Source: a virus
Taxonomy: Duplodnaviria; Heunggongvirae; Uroviricota; Caudoviricetes
Reading direction: 5' to 3' (one strand)
Virus record (IMG/VR): IMGVR_UViG_2851982317_000003
DNA length: 49,084 bases
Below the pieces are notes generated by a model. That model was not told the origin of the DNA and did no database searches. It worked only from the letters and a program-made list of their open reading frames with translations. The translations under genes were made by a program, and so were the position numbers. Each line of letters starts with the position of its first letter. Within the stretch, counting starts at the first letter, position 1. Of this stretch, positions 1-48,780 are shown piece by piece.

Positions 1-1284
1 TTACTTCTTCGCCTCTGCAACCACTTTACTACCCACGCCGCGGTTATTGTATTCCCACATGCGGTTGTAGTTAGTGTCATTCAGATTGCGCTGTATTTCG
101 TCGTTATCATCTACGCTGCCGGTATTACCCGCAAACGGACGATTAGAGATCACCGCATCGGCCCACGGTTTAGCCGTGTTAAAACCTTCGTTGATGGCGC
201 TATCACGGATCACCACCTGACCGTTGGTATTGGCATCAACATCCAGCGAGCGGCCCAGTTGCGCCACACCATCACCGAAAGCATTGAAACGGCTGTTTAC
301 GGCGAGGAAACCGTAGTAAATGTTGGACAGCGTAGCCGGTGCAAACACATACGCTTCTTGCTGAGTACGTGAGTTCACCACGCGGAATTCGGTGTTATCG
401 AACACCACTGCGCCGCGACCAGAAACGATATCCACATCCCCTTCAATGTAGCTGTTGGTCACCAGCGTACGCGGCTGACGATTCGTTTCCAGACGGTTCT
501 GCACACCGCTGTTGGTGACAAAGAAGGTGTTCTGACGACCGAGAATGTTAACGTTGTTAATCTGTACCTGGTCACCATCAGTACGCAGTGCCACCGCCGG
601 ATGGTTACCTGCATCTACGCTATCGCCCAGCGTGTTTTCGATGGTCAGATTTTGCAGTTGCAGGCCATTGTTTTGTGACCAGAAGACCGCAGAGCAGAGA
701 ACACCGATACTGTCGCTGCGTTTGCTCTGGCAGCTATCGTACATATACCACGCTGGTTTACCTGGCATATATTTGCCGCGCGGGTTGACGTCGTGACGCC
801 AGTCGGCAGGGCTCATGCCACCATCAAGGGAAAGCCCAATCTTCACATCAATCGGTTTTTCACCTGTACCGTACAGAGTAATTCCACCCGGAGCGGCAGG
901 GACATATACCGTTCCCTGATACTCACCAGGCATCACGGCAATATACTGGCGCTTGTTGGTACGCTTGATAATTGCCGCATCTACCGCCGCCTGAATCGTG
1001 GTATGCGTTACACCTTGAGTGCCCGCCGGGCCGACAACAAAGTCAGGTTGCGCAGGCAGGGTAATCGGGGAAGGATTCCACGCTGCAGCACCTGGTGTCA
1101 GGGATGCAAAATAGTGTTGAGCATCGAAATTCTGCGCTTCTTTTGCCGACAGAATCGGGCGAGAAGAGGTACCAGGCGCGGTTTGATCAGAAGGACGTTG
1201 ATCGGGCGGGGTTGAGCTACAGGCGGTCAGCGTCACGCCAAAAGCCAATGCCAGCGCCAGACGGGAAACTGAAAATGTGTTCAC
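1..1284 (-). CDS. ybhC: YbhC-like outer-membrane lipoprotein (pectinesterase / acyl-CoA thioesterase family); chromosomal gene flanking the prophage
   Basis: 427-aa ORF with lipoprotein-type signal (LTLTAC); lies immediately outside the lambda att core, as at E. coli attB-lambda. Confidence 0.85.
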   Translation of the reverse strand: MNTFSVSRLALALAFGVTLTACSSTPPDQRPSDQTAPGTSSRPILSAKEAQNFDAQHYFASLTPGAAAWNPSPITLPAQPDFVVGPAGTQGVTHTTIQAAVDAAIIKRTNKRQYIAVMPGEYQGTVYVPAAPGGITLYGTGEKPIDVKIGLSLDGGMSPADWRHDVNPRGKYMPGKPAWYMYDSCQSKRSDSIGVLCSAVFWSQNNGLQLQNLTIENTLGDSVDAGNHPAVALRTDGDQVQINNVNILGRQNTFFVTNSGVQNRLETNRQPRTLVTNSYIEGDVDIVSGRGAVVFDNTEFRVVNSRTQQEAYVFAPATLSNIYYGFLAVNSRFNAFGDGVAQLGRSLDVDANTNGQVVIRDSAINEGFNTAKPWADAVISNRPFAGNTGSVDDNDEIQRNLNDTNYNRMWEYNNRGVGSKVVAEAKK

Positions 1285-1418: not shown

Positions 1419-2489
1419 TTATTTGATTTCAATTTTGTCCCACTCCCTGCCTCTGTCATCACGATACTGTGATGCCATGGTGTCCGACTTATGCCCGAGA
1501 AGATGTTGAGCAAACTTATCGCTTATCTGCTTCTCATAGAGTCTTGCAGACAAACTGCGCAACTCGTGAAAGGTAGGCGGATCCCCTTCGAAGGAAAGAC
1601 CTGATGCTTTTCGTGCGCGCATAAAATACCTTGATACTGTGCCGGATGAAAGCGGTTCACGACGAGTAGATGCAATTATGGTTTCTCCGCCAAGAATCTC
1701 TTTGCATTTATCAAGTGTTTCCTTCATTGATATCCCGAGAGCATCAACATGCAATGTTGTTGGGATGGCAATTTTTACGCCTGTTTTGCTTTGCTCGACA
1801 TAAAGATATCCATCTACGATATCAGACCACTTCATTTCGCATAAATCACCAACTCGTTGCCCGGTAACAACAGCCAGTTCCATTGCAAGTCTGAGCCAAC
1901 ATGGTGATGATTCTGCTGCTTGATAAATTTTCAGGTATTCGTCAGCCGTAAGTCTTGATCTCCTTACCTCTGATTTTGCTGCGCGAGTGGCAGCGACAGG
2001 GTTTGTTGTTATATGGCCTTCAGCTATTGCCTCTCGGAATGCATCGCTCAGTGTTGATCTGATTAACTTGGCTGACGCCGCCTTGCCCTCGTCTATGTAT
2101 CCATTGAGCATTGCCGCAATTTCTTTTGTGGTGATGTCTTCAAGTGGAGCATCAGGCAGCCCCCTCCTTATTGCTTTAATTTTGCTCATGTAATTTATGA
2201 GTGTCTTCTGCTTGATTCCTCTGCTGGCCAGGATTTTTTCGTAGCGATCAAGCCATGAATGTAACGTAACGGAATTATCACTGTTGATTCTCGCTGTCAG
2301 AGGCTTGTGTTTGTGTCCTGAAAATAACTCAATGTTGGCCTGTATGGCTTCAGTGATTGCGATTCGCCTGTCTCTGCCTAATCCAAACTCTTTACCCGTC
2401 CTTGGGTCCCTGTAGCAGTAATATCCATTGTTTCTTATATAAAGGTTAGGGGGTAAATCCCGGCGCTCATGACTTCGCCTTCTTCCCAT
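1419..2489 (-). CDS. int: Lambda integrase (tyrosine recombinase)
   Basis: 356-aa ORF matching lambda Int as recalled (MGRRRSHERRDLPPNLYIRNNGYYCYRDPRTGKEFGLG...); adjacent to attL. Confidence 0.97.
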   Translation of the reverse strand: MGRRRSHERRDLPPNLYIRNNGYYCYRDPRTGKEFGLGRDRRIAITEAIQANIELFSGHKHKPLTARINSDNSVTLHSWLDRYEKILASRGIKQKTLINYMSKIKAIRRGLPDAPLEDITTKEIAAMLNGYIDEGKAASAKLIRSTLSDAFREAIAEGHITTNPVAATRAAKSEVRRSRLTADEYLKIYQAAESSPCWLRLAMELAVVTGQRVGDLCEMKWSDIVDGYLYVEQSKTGVKIAIPTTLHVDALGISMKETLDKCKEILGGETIIASTRREPLSSGTVSRYFMRARKASGLSFEGDPPTFHELRSLSARLYEKQISDKFAQHLLGHKSDTMASQYRDDRGREWDKIEIK

Positions 2490-4317: not shown

Positions 4318-4533
4318 TCACCGTTCCTTAAAGACGCCGTTTAACATGCCGATCGCCAGGCTTAAATGAGTCGGTGTGAATCCCATCAGCGTTACCGTTT
4401 CGCGGTGCTTCTTCAGTACGCTACGGCAAATGTCATCGACGTTTTTATCCGGAAACTGCTGTCTGGCTTTTTTGATTTCAGAATTAGCCTGACGGGCAAT
4501 GCTGCGAAGGGCGTTTTCCTGCTGAGGTGTCAT
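4318..4533 (-). CDS. Lambda orf61-region small protein (start taken at internal Met MTPQQENAL; ORF extends to 4599)
   Basis: ORF in the lambda orf61 position; start choice uncertain. Confidence 0.6.
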   Translation of the reverse strand: MTPQQENALRSIARQANSEIKKARQQFPDKNVDDICRSVLKKHRETVTLMGFTPTHLSLAIGMLNGVFKER

Positions 4534-4609
4534 TGAACAAGTCCCATGTCGGCAAGCATAAGCACACAGAATATGAAGCCCGCTGCCAGAAAAATGCATT
4601 CAGTGGTTG

Positions 4610-4801
4610 TCATACCTGGTCTCTCTCATCTGCTTCTGCTTTCGCCACCATCATTTCCAGCTTTTGTGAAAGGGATGCGGCTAACGTGTGAAATTCTTCG
4701 TCTGTTTCTACTGGTATTGGCACAAACCTGACTCCAATTTGAGCGAGGCTATGTGCCATCTCGATACTCGTTCTTAACTCAACGGGAGATGCTTTGTGCA
4801 T
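4610..4801 (-). CDS. orf63: Lambda Orf63-like protein
   Basis: 63-aa ORF ([23 protein letters not shown]...) in the lambda orf63 position. Confidence 0.8.
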   Translation of the reverse strand: MHKASPVELRTSIEMAHSLAQIGVRFVPIPVETDEEFHTLAASLSQKLEMMVAKAEADERDQV

Positions 4802-4962
4802 ACAGCTCCCCGTTTATTATTTATCTCCTCAGCCAGCCGCTGTGCTTTCAGGGGATTTCGGATAACAGAAAGGCCGGGAAATACCCAGCCTCGCTTCGTA
4901 ACGGAGTAGACGAAAGTGATCGTGCCTACGCGGATATTATCGTGAGGATGTTTCATCGCCAT
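4774..4962 (-). CDS. orf60a: Lambda Orf60a-like protein
   Basis: 62-aa ORF just upstream of exo on the minus strand. Confidence 0.7.
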
Positions 4963-5633
4963 TGCTCCCCAAATACAAAACCAATTTCAGCCAGTGCCTC
5001 GTCCATTTTTTCGATGAACTCCGGCACCATCTCGTCAAAACTCGCCATGTACTTTTCATCCCGCTCAACCACGACATAATGCAGTCCTTCACGCTTCATA
5101 CGCGGGTCATAGTTGGCAAAGTACCAGGCATCTTTTCGCGTCACCCACATGCTGTACTGCACCTGGGCCATGTAAGCCGACTTTATGGCCTCGAAACCAC
5201 CGAGCCGGAACTTCATGAAATCCCGGGAGGTAAACGGGCATTTCAGCTCAAGGCCATTGCCGTCACTGCATAAACCATCGGGAGAGCAGGCGGTACGCAT
5301 ACTTTCGTCGCGATAGATGATCGGGGATTCAGTAACATTCACGCCGGAAGTGAATTCAAACAGAGTTCTGGCGTCGTTCTCGTACTGTTTTCCCCATGCC
5401 AGCGCCTTAGCATTAACTTCCGGAGCCACACCGGTGCAAACCTCAGCCAGCAGGGTGTGGAAGTAGGACATTTTCATGTCAGGCCACTTTTTTCCGGAGC
5501 GGGGTTTTGCTATCACATTGTGAACTTCTGAAGCGGTGATGACGCCGAGCCGTAATTTGTGCCACGCATCATCCCCCTGTTCGACAGCTCTCACGTCGAT
5601 TCCGGTACGCTGCAGGATAATGTCCGGTGTCAT
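4953..5633 (-). CDS. exo: Lambda exonuclease (Red-alpha)
   Basis: 226-aa ORF ([43 protein letters not shown]...). Confidence 0.97.
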
Positions 5634-6415
5634 GCAGCCACCTTCTGCTCAGTGGCTTTCTGTTTCAGGAATCCAAGAGCTTTCACTGCTTCGGCCTGTG
5701 TCAGTTCTGACGATGCGCGAATGTCGCGGCGAAATATCTGGGAACAGAGCGGCAATAAGTCGTCATCCCATGTTTTATCCAGGGCAATCAGCAGAGTGTT
5801 AATCTCCTGCATGGTTTCATCGTTAACCGGAGTGATGTCGCGTTCCGGCTGACGTTCTGCAGTGTATGCGGTATTTTCGACAATGCGCTCGGCTTCATCC
5901 TTGTCATAGATACCAGCAAATCCGAAGGCGAGACGGGCACACTGAATCATGGCTTTATGCCGTAACATCCGTTTGGGATGCGACTGCCACGGCCCCGTGA
6001 TTTCTCTGCCTTCGCGGGTTTTGAATGGTTCGCGGCGGCATTCATCCATCCACTCGGTAACGCAGATCGGATGATTGCGGTCTTTGCGGTAAATCCGGCA
6101 TGTGCAGGATTCGTTGTCCTGTTCAAAGTCCATGCCGTCAAACTGCTGGTTTTCGTTGATGATGCGGGACCAGCCATCAACGCCCACCACCGGAACGATG
6201 CCGTTCTGCTTATCAGGGAAGGCGTAAATTTCTTTCGTCCACGGATTAAGACCGTACTGGTTGGCGACGATCAGCAATGCGATGAACTGCGCATCGCTGG
6301 CATCACCTTTAAATGCCGTCTGGCGAAGAGTGGTGATCAGTTCCTGTGGGTCGACAGAATCCATGCCGACTCGTTCAGCCAGCTTCCCAGCCAGCGTTGC
6401 GAGTGCTGTACTCAT
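5630..6415 (-). CDS. bet: Bet single-strand annealing protein (Red-beta)
   Basis: 261-aa ORF ([37 protein letters not shown]...); overlaps exo start. Confidence 0.97.
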
Positions 6416-8590: not shown

Positions 8591-8645
8591 GGTGATGCTG
8601 CCAACTTACTGATTTAGTGTATGATGGTGTTTTTGAGGTGCTCCA

Positions 8646-8921
8646 GTGGCTTCCATTTCCATCAGATGTCCTTCCTGCTCCGCTACTGAAGGCGTGGTGC
8701 GTAACGGCAAAAGCACTGCCGGACATCAGCGCTATCTCTGCTCTCACTGCCGTAAAACATGGCAACTGCAGTTCACTTACACCGCTTCTCAACCCGGTAC
8801 GCACCAGAAAATCATTGATATGGCCATGAATGGCGTTGGATGCCGGGCAACAGCCCGCATTATGGGCATTGGCCTCAACACGATTTTACGTCACTTAAAA
8901 AACTCAGGCCGCAGTCGGTAA
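8646..8921 (+). CDS. insA: IS1 InsA
   Basis: 91-aa [46 protein letters not shown]... Confidence 0.95.
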
Positions 8922-9343
8922 CCTCGCGCATACAGCCGGGCAGTGACGTCATCGTCTGCGCGGAAATGGACGAACAGTGGGGCTATGTCGGGGCTAAATC
9001 GCGCCAGCGCTGGCTGTTTTACGCGTATGACAGGCTCCGGAAGACGGTTGTTGCGCACGTATTCGGTGAACGCACTATGGCGACGCTGGGGCGTCTTATG
9101 AGCCTGCTGTCACCCTTTGACGTGGTGATATGGATGACGGATGGCTGGCCGCTGTATGAATCCCGCCTGAAGGGAAAGCTGCACGTAATCAGCAAGCGAT
9201 ATACGCAGCGAATTGAGCGGCATAACCTGAATCTGAGGCAGCACCTGGCACGGCTGGGACGGAAGTCGCTGTCGTTCTCAAAATCGGTGGAGCTGCATGA
9301 CAAAGTCATCGGGCATTATCTGAACATAAAACACTATCAATAA
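8840..9343 (+). CDS. insB: IS1 InsB (made as an InsAB' fusion by frameshifting)
   Basis: 167-aa ORF in the -1 frame overlapping insA. Confidence 0.9.
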
Positions 9344-9358
9344 GTTGGAGTCATTACC

Positions 9359-17385: not shown

Positions 17386-18468
17386 TTAGAACTGATACAC
17401 CAGACCTACAGCGACGATGTCGTCGGTATCAATACCAGCTGTTTTGGTAAACTTACTATCGTCAATTAAGTTGATTTTGTAATCAACAAAAGTGGACATG
17501 TTTTTATTAAAGTAGTAAGTAGCACCGACATCGACATACTTGACTAAGTCTCGGTCACCATGAACACCAAGGTCTTTACCTTTTGACTGAAGGTAAGCAA
17601 CAGATGGTCGCAGACCGAAGTCAAACTGATATTGTGCTACTGCTTCAAAGTTTTGTGCTTTGTTTGCAATATGGTTATTACCAAAAACGGTCATATTCTG
17701 AGTTTCAGAATATGTGGTAGCCAGATAGATATTGTTCGCATCATATTTCAGGCCTGCAGCCCATACTTCCGCATTTTTGCCGGAGGCATTGAATTTGCTC
17801 TTACCATAGGCGACCTGACCGTCAGTGCGATCTGATTTAGCATAGGTTGCACCCACGCCGAATCCTTCATACTCATAAGTAGTGGAGAAACCGAAACCAT
17901 CACCATTGGCTTCAGTTACGTCAGTGCGGTCATTTTTACCCTGATACTGAGCAGCAAAGTTCAGGCCATCGACCAGACCAAAGAAGTCGTTGTTACGATA
18001 GGTTGCAACACCAGTGGTGCGACCAGTCATGAACACATCTGTTTGGGTCCAGGTATCGCCACCGAATTCTGGCAGAACGTCAGTCCACGCACCGATGTCG
18101 TATGCTACACCGTAGTTACGGCCGTAATCGATTGAGCCGTAGTCACCGAATTTCAGGCCTGCAAATGCAAGACGGGTTTTGTCTTTGGAGGAACCTTGAG
18201 ATTCAGCGCGGTTGCCTTTGAATTCATATTCCCACTGACCGAAACCAGTCAGTTGATCGTTGATTTGGGTTTCACCTTTGAAGCCAAGACGGGCATAAGT
18301 AGTATCACCATCATCTGCATCATTAGAGGAGAAGTAGTGCTTAGCATTAACTTTCCCGTACAGATCCAGCTTGTTACTGTCTTTATTATAAATTTCAGCT
18401 GCCTGAGCAGACATCGCCATCAGTACTGATGCAGCTACAGCAGAAATTGCCACTGTTAATTTTTTCAT
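17386..18468 (-). CDS. nmpC: OmpC-family trimeric porin, phage-borne (Lc / NmpC-like lysogenic-conversion gene)
   Basis: 360-aa ORF with signal peptide ([23 protein letters not shown]), AEIYNKD...C-terminal VYQF; between Q and holin in opposite orientation. Confidence 0.9.
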
Positions 18469-21680: not shown

Positions 21681-21748
21681 TGGCAAACGCAAAACGTAAC
21701 CGGCTCATTTAAACCGTCTGGTCTGTTTCCTCCGGCTCTACAAAAATA

Positions 21749-22426
21749 ATGTCCATCATTTTTAATGGACACTATCGTATGAAACACCGGACCTGGATCA
21801 CTGAAGCTTTACGTCTTCACTTTGAAGAACATTTACCCCGGGTTGTGGCCGGGCGTCGCCTGGGTGTACCAAAATCAACAGTTTGTAGTATGTTCGTGCG
21901 CTTTCGGAGAGCTGGCCTTTCGTGGCCTTTGCCCGCAGGCATGTCGGAGCAGGAACTTGATGCCTGCCTTTACGGACAATTTTCCACGGTACCAGTCGTA
22001 CGTCCTGAAAGCACCGTTATATCCGAAGCCCCCGTGGTAAAAAAACGTCCCCGGCGGCCCAACTTCCCTTATGAGTTTAAAATCGCCTTAGTGGAGCAGT
22101 CACTGCAGCCCGGAGCCTGTGTGGCGCAGATCGCCCGGGAAAACGGAATCAACGATAACCTGCTCTTCAACTGGCGCCATCAATACCGGAAAGGTGGCCT
22201 GCTGCCTTCCGGAAAAAATATGCCGGCACTGCTTCCCGTGACGTTAACGCCGGAGCCGGATAATAAAATCCCGGCCCCCGCACAGGAACCAGAGCAGATA
22301 AATACACCGTCCGACAGTCTGTGTTGTGAGCTGGTTCTGCCGGCCGGAACTCTCAGGCTTAAAGGTAAACTGACGCCGGCGTTATTACAGACACTTATCC
22401 GCGAAATAAAAGGGAGCAGCCACTGA
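21749..22426 (+). CDS. IS66-family accessory protein TnpA (orfA); start uncertain
   Basis: Contains the PRRPNFPYEFKIALVEQSLQPGACVAQIARENGINDNLLFNWRHQYRKG motif. Confidence 0.7.
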   Translation: MSIIFNGHYRMKHRTWITEALRLHFEEHLPRVVAGRRLGVPKSTVCSMFVRFRRAGLSWPLPAGMSEQELDACLYGQFSTVPVVRPESTVISEAPVVKKRPRRPNFPYEFKIALVEQSLQPGACVAQIARENGINDNLLFNWRHQYRKGGLLPSGKNMPALLPVTLTPEPDNKIPAPAQEPEQINTPSDSLCCELVLPAGTLRLKGKLTPALLQTLIREIKGSSH

Positions 22427-22773
22427 TGATATCTCTCCCTGCAGGTTCGCGTATCTGGCTGGTTGCAGGTATCACCGATATGCGAAATGGCTTTAACGGC
22501 CTGGCATCAAAAGTTCAGAACGTCCTGAAGGATGACCCGTTCTCCGGACACCTGTTCATCTTCCGCGGACGCCGGGGTGACCAGATAAAAGTGTTGTGGG
22601 CTGACAGTGACGGACTGTGCCTCTTCACCAAACGCCTGGAGCGGGGCCGCTTCGTCTGGCCAGTCACCCGTGACGGCAAGGTGCACCTTACTCCGGCTCA
22701 GTTATCCATGCTTCTTGAAGGTATCAACTGGAAGCACCCGAAACGAACGGAACGCGCTGGAATCCGCATATAA
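22426..22773 (+). CDS. IS66-family TnpB (orfB)
   Basis: 115-aa ORF MISLPAGSRIWLVAGITDMRNGFNGLASKV..., start overlapping the orfA stop. Confidence 0.85.
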   Translation: MISLPAGSRIWLVAGITDMRNGFNGLASKVQNVLKDDPFSGHLFIFRGRRGDQIKVLWADSDGLCLFTKRLERGRFVWPVTRDGKVHLTPAQLSMLLEGINWKHPKRTERAGIRI

Positions 22774-22792
22774 CCCGTTGTAAAGTGAGGAT

Positions 22793-24364
22793 ATGGACAC
22801 CTCACTTGCTCATGAGAACGCCCGCCTGCGGGCACTGTTGCAGACGCAACAGGACACCATCCGCCAGATGGCTGAATACAACCGCCTGCTCTCACAGCGG
22901 GTGGCGGCTTATGCTTCCGAAATCAACCGGCTGAAGGCGCTGGTTGCGAAACTGCAACGTATGCAGTTCGGTAAAAGCTCAGAAAAACTTCGTGCAAAAA
23001 CCGAACGGCAGATACAGGAAGCACAGGAGCGAATCAGCGCACTTCAGGAAGAAATGGCGGAAACGCTGGGTGAGCAATATGACCCGGTACTGCCATCCGC
23101 CCTGCGCCAGTCTTCAGCCCGTAAACCGTTACCGGCCTCACTTCCCCGTGAAACCCGGGTTATCCGGCCGGAAGAGGAATGCTGTCCTGCCTGTGGTGGT
23201 GAACTCAGTTCTCTGGGATGTGATGTGTCAGAGCAACTGGAGCTTATCAGCAGCGCCTTTAAGGTTATTGAAACACAACGTCCGAAACAGGCCTGTTGCC
23301 GGTGCGACCATATCGTGCAGGCACCAGTACCTTCAAAACCCATTGCACGCAGTTATGCCGGAGCGGGGCTTCTGGCCCATGTTGTCACCGGGAAATATGC
23401 AGACCATCTGCCGTTATACCGCCAGTCAGAAATATACCGTCGTCAGGGAGTGGAGCTGAGCCGTGCCACACTGGGGCGCTGGACAGGTGCTGTTGCTGAA
23501 CTGCTGGAGCCGCTGTATGACGTCCTGCGCCAGTATGTGCTGATGCCCGGTAAAGTCCATGCTGATGATATCCCCGTCCCGGTCCAGGAGCCGGGCAGCG
23601 GTAAAACCCGGACAGCCCGGCTGTGGGTCTACGTCCGTGATGACCGTAACGCCGGTTCACAGATGCCCCCGGCGGTCTGGTTCGCGTACAGTCCGGACCG
23701 GAAAGGTATCCATCCACAAAATCACCTGGCCGGTTACAGCGGTGTGCTTCAGGCCGATGCTTACGGTGGTTACCGGGCGTTATACGAATCCGGCAGAATA
23801 ACGGAAGCCGCGTGTATGGCTCATGCCCGGAGAAAAATCCACGATGTGCATGCAAGAGCGCCCACCTACATCACCACGGAAGCCCTGCAGCGTATCGGTG
23901 AACTGTATGCCATCGAGGCAGAGGTCCGGGGCTGTTCAGCAGAACAGCGTCTGGCGGCAAGAAAAGCCAGAGCCGCGCCACTGATGCAGTCACTGTATGA
24001 CTGGATACAGCAACAGATGAAAACACTGTCGCGTCACTCAGATACGGCAAAAGCGTTCGCATACCTGCTGAAACAGTGGGATGCACTGAACGTGTACTGC
24101 AGTAATGGCTGGGTGGAAATCGACAACAACATCGCAGAGAACGCCTTACGGGGAGTGGCCGTAGGCCGGAAAAACTGGATGTTCGCGGGTTCCGACAGCG
24201 GTGGTGAACATGCGGCGGTGTTGTACTCGCTGATCGGCACATGCCGTCTGAACAATGTGGAGCCAGAAAAGTGGCTGCGTTACGTCATTGAACATATCCA
24301 GGACTGGCCGGCAAACCGGGTACGCGATCTGTTGCCCTGGAAAGTTGATCTGAGCTCTCAGTAA
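22793..24364 (+). CDS. IS66-family transposase TnpC (leucine zipper, zinc finger, DDE domain)
   Basis: 523-aa ORF with CPACGG...CxxC zinc-finger and DDE region. Confidence 0.9.
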
Positions 24365-24807
24365 ATATCAATACGGTTCTGACGAGTCGCTTACGACTGA
24401 TGGAAAGACATCCTAATTTCAGCCAAACATTGAAGGAGTTGTTATGTCAGCAGAAGGTTTCAATAACCCATCAAAATTCCGGGATGAGTGGGATAGCAGC
24501 GTAAAGAGTAAGTGATGCCATCACAAAAGCCATTCCCTACAGAGTGGCTTTGATAATGGCTTATACCCTACACGGGATAACTTAACTGATATCCCTTTTA
24601 AAGGATAAAGGTATTCAAGCCTGACACATCATGCGCTGTATCGTCGCCGTATTCCCGTATTAACAGAGACCGTAGCCCGACGGGGAACTCCTTCTGCGCG
24701 AGTGTGCGGGAATAATCAAAAACGATGCACACCGGGGTTACCGGGTACACATATTTCATCATGCCAGCGAGTCCGGTTCTGGCACGGAAGAAACCGGACG
24801 TTATGAT

Positions 24808-26443: not shown

Positions 26444-30124
<3,681 letters not shown>

Positions 30125-30144
<20 letters not shown>

Positions 30145-31443
30145 TCTCCCGCATATTGCCAGCATGGCCTTTAATGAGCCGCTGATGCTTGAACCCGCCT
30201 ATGCGCGGGTTTTCTTTTGTGCGCTTGCAGGCCAGCTTGGGATCAGCCGCCTGACGGATGCGGTGTCCGGCGACAGCCTGACTGCCCAGGAGGCACTCGC
30301 GACGCTGGCATTATCCGGTGATGATGACGGACCACGACAGGCCCGCAGTTATCAGGTCATGAACGGCATCGCCGTGCTGCCGGTGTCCGGCACGCTGGTC
30401 AGCCGGACGCGGGCGCTGCAGCCGTACTCGGGATGACCGGTTACAACGGCATTATCGCCCGTCTGCAACAGGCTGCCAGCGACCCGATGGTGGACGGCAT
30501 TCTGCTCGATATGGACACGCCAGGCGGAATGGTGGCGGGGGCATTTGACTGCGCTGACATCATCGCCCGTGTGCGAGACATAAAACCGGTATGGGCGCTG
30601 GCCAACGACATGAACTGCAGTGCAGGTCAGCTGCTTGCCAGTGCCGCCTCCCGGCGTCTGGTCACGCAGACCGCCCGGACAGGCTCCATCGGCGTCATGA
30701 TGGCTCACAGTAATTACGGTGCTGCCCTGGAGAAACAGGGTGTGGAAATCACGCTGATTTACAGCGGCAGCCATAAGGTGGATGGCAATCCCTACAGCCA
30801 TCTTCCGGATGACGTCCGGGAGACACTGCAGTCCCGGATGGACGCAACCCGCCAGATGTTTGCGCAGAAGGTGTCGGCATATACCGGCCTGTCTGTGCAG
30901 GCTGTGCTGGATACCGAGGCTGCAGTGTACAGCGGTCAGGAGGCCATTGATGCCGGACTGGCTGATGAACTTGTTAACAGCACCGATGCGATCACCGTCA
31001 TGCGTGATGCACTGGATGCGCGTAAATCCCGTCTCTCAGGAGGGCGAATGACCAAAGAGACTCAATCAACAACTGTTTCAGCCACTGCTTCGCAGACTGA
31101 CGTTACTGACGTGGTGCCAGCGACGGAGGGCGAAAACGCCAGCGCGGCGCAGCCGGACGTGAACGCGCAGATCACCGCTGCGGTTGCGGCAGAAAACAGC
31201 CGCATTATGGGGATCCTCAACTGTGAGGAGGCTCACGGACGCGAAGAACAGGCCCGCGTGCTGGCAGAAACCCCCGGTATGACCGTGGAAACGGCCCGCC
31301 GCATTCTGGCAGCTGCACCACAGAGTGCACAGGCGCGCAGTGACACTGCGCTGGATCGTCTGATGCAGGGGGCACCGGCACCGCTGGCTGCAGGTAACCC
31401 GGCATCTGATGCCGTTAACGATTTGCTGAACACACCAGTGTAA
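30125..31443 (+). pseudogene. C: Head protease/scaffold gene C with an apparent 1-bp deletion at about 30431-30436 (GTG start)
   Basis: N-terminal 103 codons end PYSG-stop; the rest (MTGYNGIIARLQQ...) continues in the +2 frame from an overlapping ATG; span is 1319 nt against the recalled 1320. Confidence 0.7.
30838..31443 (+). CDS. nu3: Scaffolding protein Nu3 (in-frame internal start within the C-terminal part of C)
   Basis: ATG at 30838 in the frame of the C-terminal C reading, ending at the C stop. Confidence 0.75.
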   Translation: MDATRQMFAQKVSAYTGLSVQAVLDTEAAVYSGQEAIDAGLADELVNSTDAITVMRDALDARKSRLSGGRMTKETQSTTVSATASQTDVTDVVPATEGENASAAQPDVNAQITAAVAAENSRIMGILNCEEAHGREEQARVLAETPGMTVETARRILAAAPQSAQARSDTALDRLMQGAPAPLAAGNPASDAVNDLLNTPV

Positions 31444-35836: not shown

Positions 35837-36252
35837 GTTTTGCCCTGAAACTGGCGCGTGAGATGGGGCGACCCGACTGGCGCGCCATGCTTGCCGGGAT
35901 GTCATCCACGGAGTATGCCGACTGGCACCGCTTTTACAGTACCCATTATTTTCATGATGTTCTGCTGGATATGCACTTTTCCGGGCTGACGTACACCGTA
36001 CTCAGCCTGTTTTTCAGCGATCCGGATATGCATCCGCTGGATTTCAGTCTGCTGAACCGGCGCGAGGCTGACGAAGAGCCTGAAGATGATGTGCTGATGC
36101 AGAAAGCGGCAGGGCTTGCCGGAGGCGTCCGCTTTGGCCCGGACGGGAATGAAGTTATCCCCGCTTCCCCGGATGTGGCGGACATGACGGAGGATGACGT
36201 AATGCTGATGACAGTATCAGAAGGGATCGCAGGAGGAGTCCGGTATGGCTGA
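35818..36252 (+). CDS. T: Tail assembly protein T, expressed as a G-T fusion by -1 programmed frameshift
   Basis: ORF in the -1 frame overlapping the G 3' end, downstream of the slippery site. Confidence 0.9.
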   Translation: MFDGELSFALKLAREMGRPDWRAMLAGMSSTEYADWHRFYSTHYFHDVLLDMHFSGLTYTVLSLFFSDPDMHPLDFSLLNRREADEEPEDDVLMQKAAGLAGGVRFGPDGNEVIPASPDVADMTEDDVMLMTVSEGIAGGVRYG

Positions 36253-38824
36253 ACCGGTAGGCGATCTGGTCGTTGATTTGAGTCTGGATGCGGCCAGATT
36301 TGACGAGCAGATGGCCAGAGTCAGGCGTCATTTTTCCGGTACGGAAAGTGATGCGAAAAAAACAGCGGCAGTCGTTGAACAGTCAATGAACCGGCAGGCG
36401 CTGGCTGCACAGAAAGCGGGGATTTCCGTCGGACAGTATAAAGCCGCCATGCGTATGCTGCCTGCACAGTTCACCGACGTGGCCACGCAGCTTGCAGGCG
36501 GGCAAAGCCCGTGGCTGATCCTGCTGCAACAGGGGGGTCAGGTTAAGGACTCCTTCGGCGGGATGATCCCCATGTTCAGGGGGCTTGCCGGTGCGATCAC
36601 CCTGCCGATGGTGGGGGCCACCTCGCTGGCGGTGGCGACCGGTGCGCTGGCGTATGCCTGGTATCAGGGCAACTCAACCCTGTCCGATTTCAACAAAACG
36701 CTGGTCCTTTCCGGCAATCAGGCGGGACTGACGGCAGATCGTATGCTGGTCCTGTCCAGAGCCGGGCAGGCGGCAGGGCTGACGTTTAACCAGACCAGCG
36801 AGTCACTGACGGCGCTGGTGAATGCCGGTGTGCGTGGTGGTGAGCAGTTTGAGGCGATCAGCCAGAGTGTGGCGCGTTTCTCCTCTGCATCCGGCGTGGA
36901 GGTGGACAAGGTCGCTGAAGCCTTCGGGAAGCTGACCACAGACCCGACGTCGGGACTGACAGCGATGGCACGTCAGTTCCATAACGTGACGGCGGAGCAG
37001 ATTGCGTATGTTGCTCAGTTGCAGCGTTCCGGAGATGAAGCCGGCGCATTGCAGGCGGCGAGCGAGGCCGCAACGAAAGGGTTTGATGACCAGACCCGCC
37101 GCCTGAAAGAGAACATGGGCACGCTGGAGACCTGGGCAGACAGGACAGCACGGGCATTCAAATCCATGTGGGATTCGGTGCTGGATATTGGTCGCCCGGA
37201 CACTGCCCAGGGAATGCTGGAGAAAGCAGAAAAGGCTTTTGATGAGGCGGACAAAAAATGGCAGTGGTATCAGAGCCGGAGCCACCGGCGCGGTAAAACC
37301 TCAGCATTTCTTGCCAATCTCCGGGGAGCATGGGAGGACAGAGCGAATGCGCAACTTGGACTTTCAGCCGCCACGTTGCAGGCCGATCTTGAAAAGGCCA
37401 GAGAGATGGCAGCAAAGGACTGGGCCGAGTCTGAGGCATCACGGCTGAAATATACCGAAGAGGCGCAGAAGGCTTACGAACGGCTGCAGACGCCGCTGGA
37501 GAAATATACCGCCCGTCAGGAAGAACTGAACAAGGCACTGAAGGACGGGAAAATCCTGCAGGCGGATTACAACACGCTGATGGCGGCGGCGAAAAAGGAT
37601 TATGAAGCGACGCTGAAAAAGCCGAAACAGTCCGGCGTGAAGGTGTCTGCGGGCGATCGTCAGGAAGACAGTGCTCATGCTGCCCTGCTGACGCTTCAGG
37701 CAGAACTCCGGACGCTGGAGAAGCATGCCGGAGCAAATGAGAAAATCAGCCAGCAGCGCCGGGATTTGTGGAAGGCGGAGAGTCAGTTCGCGGTACTGGA
37801 GGAGGCGGCGCAACGTCGCCAGCTGTCCGCACAGGAGAAATCCCTGCTGGCGCATAAAGATGAGACGCTGGAGTACAAACGCCAGCTGGCTGCACTTGGC
37901 GACAAGGTTACGTATCAGGAGCGCCTGAACGCGCTGGCGCAGCAGGCGGATAAATTCGCACAGCAGCAACGGGCAAAACGGGCCGCTATTGATGCGAAAA
38001 GCCGGGGGCTGACTGACCGGCAGGCAGAACGGGAAGCCACGGAACAGCGCCTGAAGGAACAGTATGGCGATAATCCGCTGGCGCTGAATAACGTCATGTC
38101 AGAGCAGAAAAAGACCTGGGCGGCTGAAGACCAGCTTCGCGGGAGCTGGATGGCAGGCCTCAAGTCCGGCTGGAGTGAGTGGGAAGAGAGCGCCACGGAC
38201 AGTATGTCGCAGGTTAAAAGTGCAGCCACGCAGACCTTTGATGGTATTGCGCAGAATATGGCGGCGATGCTGACCGGCAGTGAACAGAACTGGCGCAGCT
38301 TCACCCGCTCCGTGCTGTCCATGATGACAGAAATTCTGCTTAAGCAGGCAATGGTGGGGATTGTCGGGAGTATCGGCAGCGCCATTGGCGGGGCTGTTGG
38401 TGGCGGCGCATCAGCGTCAGGCGGTACAGCCATTCAGGCAGCTGCGGCGAAATTCCATTTTGCGACCGGAGGATTTACGGGAACCGGCGGCAAATATGAG
38501 CCAGCGGGGATTGTTCACCGTGGTGAATTTGTCTTCACTAAGGAGGCAACCAGCCGGATTGGCGTGGGGAATCTCTACCGGCTGATGCGCGGCTATGCCA
38601 CCGGCGGTTATGTCGGTACACCGGGCAGCATGGCAGACAGCCGGTCGCAGGCGTCCGGGACGTTTGAGCAGAATAACCATGTGGTGATTAACAACGACGG
38701 CACGAACGGGCAGATAGGTCCGGCTGCTCTGAAGGCGGTGTATGACATGGCCCGCAAGGGTGCCCGTGATGAAATTCAGACACAGATGCGTGATGGTGGC
38801 CTGTTCTCCGGAGGTGGACGATGA
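36245..38824 (+). CDS. H: Tail tape-measure protein H
   Basis: 859-aa ORF MAEPVGDLVVDLSLDAARFDEQMARVRRHFSG... Confidence 0.97.
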   Translation: MAEPVGDLVVDLSLDAARFDEQMARVRRHFSGTESDAKKTAAVVEQSMNRQALAAQKAGISVGQYKAAMRMLPAQFTDVATQLAGGQSPWLILLQQGGQVKDSFGGMIPMFRGLAGAITLPMVGATSLAVATGALAYAWYQGNSTLSDFNKTLVLSGNQAGLTADRMLVLSRAGQAAGLTFNQTSESLTALVNAGVRGGEQFEAISQSVARFSSASGVEVDKVAEAFGKLTTDPTSGLTAMARQFHNVTAEQIAYVAQLQRSGDEAGALQAASEAATKGFDDQTRRLKENMGTLETWADRTARAFKSMWDSVLDIGRPDTAQGMLEKAEKAFDEADKKWQWYQSRSHRRGKTSAFLANLRGAWEDRANAQLGLSAATLQADLEKAREMAAKDWAESEASRLKYTEEAQKAYERLQTPLEKYTARQEELNKALKDGKILQADYNTLMAAAKKDYEATLKKPKQSGVKVSAGDRQEDSAHAALLTLQAELRTLEKHAGANEKISQQRRDLWKAESQFAVLEEAAQRRQLSAQEKSLLAHKDETLEYKRQLAALGDKVTYQERLNALAQQADKFAQQQRAKRAAIDAKSRGLTDRQAEREATEQRLKEQYGDNPLALNNVMSEQKKTWAAEDQLRGSWMAGLKSGWSEWEESATDSMSQVKSAATQTFDGIAQNMAAMLTGSEQNWRSFTRSVLSMMTEILLKQAMVGIVGSIGSAIGGAVGGGASASGGTAIQAAAAKFHFATGGFTGTGGKYEPAGIVHRGEFVFTKEATSRIGVGNLYRLMRGYATGGYVGTPGSMADSRSQASGTFEQNNHVVINNDGTNGQIGPAALKAVYDMARKGARDEIQTQMRDGGLFSGGGR

Positions 38825-48075: not shown

Positions 48076-48780
48076 ATGGCTACATCGACAGTAATTCCGG
48101 GAGACATCACCACGCTGAAGGGAGATGTCAGTAAAGCGAAGGAAGATATTTCCTCAATTAACGGTAAAGTATCAACGCTTCAGACTGATATGACCAGTGC
48201 AAAGCAGGATATCAGCTCCAGATACACAAAAACTGAAGTTGATAATAAGCTGAAAAACAAAGTGGAAGTGAACGATCTGGAAAGTGGTCGTTATGGCGGA
48301 GATTTTTATCCACTGACAGGTCGTGAAGCGTTTTATTTATGGAGTTTGGCCACGACTACAGCGGCGGCAAACCTTTATCTTAATCCTGACCCTGCAATTT
48401 CGTCTGTACTGCGGTCAACATCGTCTATCCGCTATAAACATTCAGTAGAGACGATAGATTAAGAGCACGCCGATCTCATTTTCAGGATGCGCCCTGTATG
48501 GTACAGGTCACAATGCGAAAATGACAGGCGTGACTGGGGATTCTACGGATTGATTGCCGAGGAAGTAGGAGAAATTGCCCCTCAGTTTGTACACTGGCGA
48601 TCAGCTAACGAAGATGATGCACCGGAAGCTATTTCCAGCAATGGCCTTGTTGCCGAAGGTGTAATGTACGAACGTCTGGTTGTTCCACTGATTCACCATA
48701 TCCAGAAACTGACTGAAAGAGTTGATGAACTTGAGTCAGAATTGAAGTTGTTATCAACTTCCCGAAGCGATATCGGATAA
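48076..48780 (+). pseudogene. Tail-fibre-like protein with C-terminal intramolecular-chaperone (peptidase S74-like) domain, interrupted by an in-frame TAA at 48460-48462
   Basis: Track ORFs 48076-48462 and 48487-48780 share a frame; the stop falls inside the recognisable motif (SSIRYKHSVETID-stop-...GFYGLIAEEVGEIAPQFV...YERLVVPLIHHIQKL). Confidence 0.5.

Follow-up and report, generated by a model that had tools for sequence, protein, structure and literature searches.

A single-base gap in a short G run splits head gene C of a defective lambdoid prophage

Layout of gene C and its neighbours

The DNA analysed here, a stretch of 49,084 nt to which we refer as the window, holds a lambdoid prophage at att-lambda, with ybhC at 1..1284, an integrase gene at 1419..2489 and the structural genes running out to the right-hand end. 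The head genes follow the order portal B, C, D and E, with a start for Nu3 lying in frame inside C. Gene C itself (30125..31443, plus strand) measures 1319 nt, against 1320 nt for lambda C (4418..5737), and opens with a GTG at 30125 behind the ribosome-binding site GAGGAGGAGAAGA, the combination GAGGAGGAGAAGA-GTG being the same as in lambda. From there, frame 0 continues for 103 sense codons, the last of which read ...CAG CCG TAC TCG GGA, and then meets a TGA at 30434-30436. The resulting 5' fragment (30125..30436, plus strand) covers gpC residues 1-103. The ATG of the native Met104 (30433) overlaps the TGA as ATGA and opens an ORF of 336 codons (30433..31443, plus strand), which contains the whole Peptidase_S49 match, the position of Ser166 and a scaffold tail identical to Nu3. 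In place of the single uninterrupted ORF of about 439 codons by which a gpC is recognised, the window therefore has a gene in two pieces of 103 and 336 codons, as a first-pass annotation of the sequence had described and as both the ORF list and the sequence bear out.

That annotation had also attributed the shortfall of one nucleotide to the loss of a G from a GGGG run at about 30430. Base-by-base comparison with lambda and with a sister genome leads to the same place: the lesion is a change from GGGG to GGG at 30430..30432 (plus strand), where lambda has CTCGGGGATG and the window CTCGGGATG, one G being absent from the latter. Putting this G back leaves 19 nt and four amino acid differences from lambda C (S42R, V260A, A325T and K389E) and yields WP_000123309.1, the intact 439-aa protein recorded in every sister genome. 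Judged by its sequence, C in the window is a gpC-type member by descent and a pseudogene as recorded. Nu3, the scaffold gene nested in frame at 30838..31443 (plus strand; 201 codons), lies downstream of the gap, has the same start context as in lambda and is intact; the expectation that it would be unaffected holds.

The suspicion that C is the site of a second lesion in head morphogenesis likewise stands, the first being found in portal gene B (28543..30144, plus strand; 1602 nt, as in lambda). Here, an opal codon replaces Trp115 (TGG to TGA at 28885-28887), and the same codon is present in all five complete sister genomes, where PGAP records it as an 'internal stop'. In theory, tRNA-Trp might occasionally read through such an opal. 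In a gene with a tail-fibre domain (Peptidase_S74-like; ORF 48076..48462), Ser129 has become an ochre codon (TCA to TAA at 48460-48462), a change common only to the window, E. coli E2528-C1 and one draft assembly (L023), which marks their sub-lineage. Two insertion sequences complete the inventory: an IS1 at about 8591-9358 in the immunity region, adjoining ImmA/IrrE-like and DUF4411 genes, and an IS66-family ISCro1 at about 21700-24400, between a KilA-N gene and Nu1, with tnpA at 21749-22426, tnpB at 22426-22773 and tnpC at 22793-24364. The ISCro1 copy at the same site in strain 203740 differs from that of the window at about 60 sites.

Because these older lesions are nested on the tree of the clone and recur in independent assemblies, they are real. 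Relaxed selection on the head genes preceded the change in C. With the opal at portal codon 115 the prophage was already defective, so that the gap in C is without consequence for it. An exact match to the tape-measure protein is present in 225 blocks of the protein collection, which indicates a common lineage that decays in many independent ways. Among members of this lineage in other hosts, one prophage carries a Mu-like element (Mor, GemA, Gam and an rve transposase) after tail gene I (L020, 15447-22580; GCA_012449285.1), and another is devoid of tail genes M to J (L022, 12580-14056; GCA_033843425.1). The window also encodes an OmpC-like porin (17386..18468, minus strand) between a Q-type antiterminator gene (quuD-like) and the lysis cassette; porin genes are a known kind of moron in lambdoid prophages, nmpC of DLP12 being one example.

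Position of the break within the protease fold

The repaired gpC contains a Peptidase_S49 (SppA/ClpP-like) domain. Pfam PF01343 matches residues 150-297 (E=1.4e-44) and matches the 336-aa ORF on its own about equally well (E=9e-45), and weaker Pfam matches to ClpP and NfeD begin at residue 107-110 or thereabouts. The alignment with Bacillus subtilis SppA (3RST) reaches further upstream, covering gpC residues 81-298 (E=6e-22) and starting at GIAVLPVSGTLV, in the first strand of the SppA/ClpP-like fold, which corresponds to gpC residues 81-92 approximately. In this alignment, Ser166 of gpC (NCSAG) stands opposite the serine of the SppA AASGG motif, at a conserved position; we take these two residues to be the catalytic serines.

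As the SppA alignment starts at residue 81, the break at codon 103/104 falls inside the protease fold rather than ahead of it. The N-terminal fragment retains residues 1-103 and with them the first strand; what remains of the fold lies in the 336-aa fragment, together with the serine and the scaffold tail. Neither fragment alone would be expected to act as an active, portal-targeted protease. Some of the 336-aa fragment might nevertheless be made by termination and reinitiation at the ATGA, although no Shine-Dalgarno sequence is found upstream of the ATG at 30433.

Relatives and other carriers of the gapped allele

The window is colinear with the chromosome of E. coli ETEC E2528-C1 (NZ_CP035870.1, 1636008-1685092; 49,084 against 49,085 nt). 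This strain, an LT-only O25:NM ETEC, is known from a cruise-ship outbreak and as a challenge strain (PMC6663128); the literature we found on it says nothing of the technology by which its genome was sequenced. Compared base by base over 49,084 nt, the two sequences differ only by the missing G at 30430-32 and a C to T change at 37987, and the G is therefore the sole indel in 49 kb to separate the window from its closest relative. The C to T change lies at the third position of Ala581 (GCC to GCT, synonymous) in the tape-measure gene (36245..38824) and was seen nowhere else among the assemblies examined.

All five complete sister genomes (E2528-C1, 203740, F5505-C1, L4_E1441 and NCCP 13717) read GGGG and encode the intact 439-aa WP_000123309.1. 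When they are aligned with the window over 24,786 bases, eight SNP sites are seen along with a single indel, that of the window. Sisters beyond the complete genomes were found by looking up the exact tape-measure protein, and six further assemblies with the identical protein also read GGGG. Among them is L023 (draft GCA_037005285.1), which is the third member of the E2528-C1 sub-lineage and has C at 37987; the look-up yielded no second assembly of the source strain.

To cover more distant copies, we used a 71-nt query centred on the G run, which matched at 4,478 sites across 3,157 complete E. coli genomes as well as in 81 phage records, the latter again reading GGGG and encoding an intact 439-aa C. 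None of these places gave an ungapped match to the GGG allele; the best, in either collection, reached 98.6%, equivalent to one gap, and it follows that copies sharing these flanks do not have GGG. Exact-pattern scans for the GGG allele returned nothing from the GTDB representative genomes or from the JGI metagenomes. The scan of IMG/VR returned one contig, belonging to a prophage separate from that of the window (L014, see below).

Protein look-ups in a collection of 15 billion proteins need to be read with some care. The intact C allele (P0001) is present on at least 1000 contigs, whereas the 336-aa ORF (P0002) is recorded on two only, of which one is a chromosome, presumably the source of the window, and the other a draft contig (L003) that begins at GGATGACC and is truncated by the contig end. 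Matches to the 103-aa product fall in 31 blocks; of these, the ten carriers listed all stop at a contig end, reading ...TCGGG, ...TCGGGG or ...TCGGGGA, and where the contig extends past the run the letters are GGGG(A). Among these ten, there is no short-read or draft contig in which the 103-aa ORF continues into further sequence. We therefore rejected the exact matches to the 103-aa and 336-aa proteins as carriers of a split gene, since they are truncations of intact C at contig ends. That at least ten contigs from unrelated assemblies (L004-L013, draft and Logan) stop within 1-2 nt of the G run is most likely a selection effect of looking up a product of exactly 103 aa, and other members of the cluster of this product end at many other lengths. 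A junction common to lambdoid prophages resident in one host might be one reason for assemblies to break there.

This leaves L014 (IMGVR_UViG_2896595138_000002), a different lambdoid prophage that is about 96% identical to the window and has the same GGG allele with the same ...PYSG*/MTGYNG split in C. Its G run is not the only one to be recorded a base short. Three more 1-bp deletions in G/C runs lie at sites matching window positions 31368, 33909 and 39940, the first of them amounting to a second frameshift in C. Measured over 9 kb against its best E. coli relatives, L014 falls short by 12 nt, a difference made up of a 9-nt in-frame indel and three single bases. This pattern fits an assembly in which G/C runs were under-called; otherwise, L014 would be a heavily decayed prophage.

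The first-pass annotation had allowed that related phages might also encode C as two ORFs; the relatives examined all encode one ORF of 439 codons. The searches show the two-ORF layout to be neither conserved nor programmed, and private, within the assemblies covered, to a single one.

Miscall, deletion and the remaining readings

How did the G come to be missing? Under the explanation we favour, the gene would be the ordinary lambda C/Nu3 head protease-scaffold gene, split in the record by a G4 run that is one G short. An under-call, made either in sequencing or when the consensus was built, would have removed the G, and the strain would carry an intact C of 439 codons, as its relatives do. 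We put the probability of such a homopolymer miscall at roughly 0.55, the technical cause being one that we infer from sequence comparison. Single-base deletions in G/C homopolymers are a typical residual error of long-read and flow-based consensus sequences. Consistent with an error of this kind, the window equals E2528-C1 apart from the gap and one synonymous SNP, while five sisters and six further assemblies read GGGG; the gap is a singleton against at least 1000 contigs with the same C allele and finds no support from a short-read assembly; and the one other GGG carrier, L014, has three further 1-bp deletions in G/C runs.

Several observations argue against a miscall, however. The assembly is not noisy overall: the 232 homopolymers of at least 5 nt in the window all match the sister genome, as do all but one of about 136 G/C 4-mers. 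Real lesions (the opal in B, the tail-fibre ochre and the IS insertions) have piled up in this lineage and are common to independent assemblies, and the ratio of SNP sites to indels in the clone, 8:1, is a natural one. Given its private C to T change at 37987, the window probably also comes from a separate isolate, one that has truly diverged to some degree.

The chief rival is thus a real deletion, that is, a very recent loss of one G by replication slippage on the terminal branch leading to this strain, representing neutral decay of the prophage. We consider this a strong contender, if at somewhat less than even chances. In its favour are the absence of a second indel in 49 kb against the nearest sister, longer homopolymers that are all intact, a private SNP that is true divergence, the biologically normal proportion of SNPs to indels and a nested series of older lesions that independent assemblies prove to be real. 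As the portal gene is already null, a deletion in C, if real, would be selectively neutral. Its expected products are the 103-aa N-terminal fragment, possibly some 336-aa protein through reinitiation at the ATGA, and normal Nu3. Weighing against it are the same facts that speak for the miscall, namely a singleton among at least 1000 contigs of one allele, the lack of short-read support and the company of L014 with its further run deletions, and the change belongs to exactly the class that sequencing errors produce.

To weigh the two we used a rough likelihood, in which assembly indel error had a log-uniform prior of 0.5-500 per genome and real indels were taken to number about 0.1-0.15 for each SNP. 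By our own inference, this yields about 55:45 for error, and up to 65:35 when the absence from short-read assemblies is counted. Homopolymer length statistics were rejected as a discriminator because slippage mutation and miscalling both rise with run length.

The other readings, in which C retains a function, fare far worse. The deletion might be real and some functional gpC still be made, by a -1 slip or by ATGA-coupled fragments, which together with read-through of the portal TGA by tRNA-Trp would give a leaky prophage; we regard this as very improbable, and of a -1 slip at C-GGG-A at a useful rate there is no evidence. Slimmer still is the chance that the two-ORF C is functional as such, either because a -1 slip restores full-length gpC or because the ATGA-coupled fragments complement each other. 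In the slip version, tRNA-Gly would move from GGA to GGG at C-GGG-A with the TGA in the A site, recreating the wild-type ...YSGMTG.... By sequence logic only, such a slip would yield exactly wild-type gpC; the ATGA overlap is a classic arrangement for translational coupling, and the 336-aa fragment does hold the whole Pfam S49 match. The relatives examined all have a single C ORF, and this lack of conservation effectively refutes an evolved two-ORF feature. Moreover, the canonical X XXY YYZ heptamer is absent from CTCGGGATGA, and the 80 nt downstream fold no better than shuffled sequence (-21.2 kcal/mol, where the shuffles average -23.6; z = +0.8). A programmed frameshift site was therefore rejected, given a layout that is not conserved, no slippery heptamer and no downstream structure. 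A functional split also has against it that no Shine-Dalgarno sequence lies before the ATG, that the break is within a fold that aligns with SppA from residue 81 onwards and that the portal gene is null regardless. Lastly, a phase-variable contingency locus was rejected, the run being only 4 nt long and GGGG invariant in the sisters and same-flank copies examined, whereas phase-variable tracts are typically at least 7 nt long and polymorphic in length among close relatives.

The split C is, then, a one-base homopolymer gap of an ordinary kind in a well-known gene, the prophage being already dead, and nothing novel. If the miscall we favour is correct, there is one consensus error to be corrected in one genome record; a real deletion would add a further neutral step to the decay of a prophage already without a functional portal gene. 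In either case, annotation should label C as a frameshifted pseudogene or a possible sequencing error, and not as two genes. Whether or not C is intact, particle formation should not be regarded as inducible from the prophage of this ETEC O25 clone.

Set beside known systems, the locus resembles several in part. Lambda C/Nu3 (NP_040584.1 and NP_040585.1), the S49 prohead protease-scaffold pair, occupies the same site between portal B and D/E and shares with the window the 20-nt overlap of B and C, the GTG start, the ribosome-binding site and the Nu3 start. The two C genes are 98.5% identical at the nucleotide level and differ by four amino acids once one G has been restored; unlike lambda C, that of the window is short of one G of the G4 run (codons 102-103) and has no uninterrupted ORF of 439 codons. 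WP_000123309.1, an S49 family peptidase encoded in the att-lambda prophage of the ETEC O25 clone, comes from a gene identical in nucleotide sequence apart from the gap. Its genomes contain this defective prophage too, portal opal included, but with GGGG and an intact C. L014 has the same GGG allele as the window, yet no fewer than four deletions of this kind within about 13 kb of structural genes, where the window has one in 49 kb. Homopolymer under-calls in long-read or flow-based assemblies likewise take the form of a 1-bp deletion in a G/C run that makes an apparent frameshift. Finally, E. coli has cryptic or defective lambdoid prophages of the DLP12, Rac and Qin type, whose structural genes have gathered nonsense mutations, frameshifts and IS insertions step by step without the prophage leaving its att site; decay in the window prophage is of the same type but far less advanced, the prophage being nearly full length, with point lesions and two IS elements.
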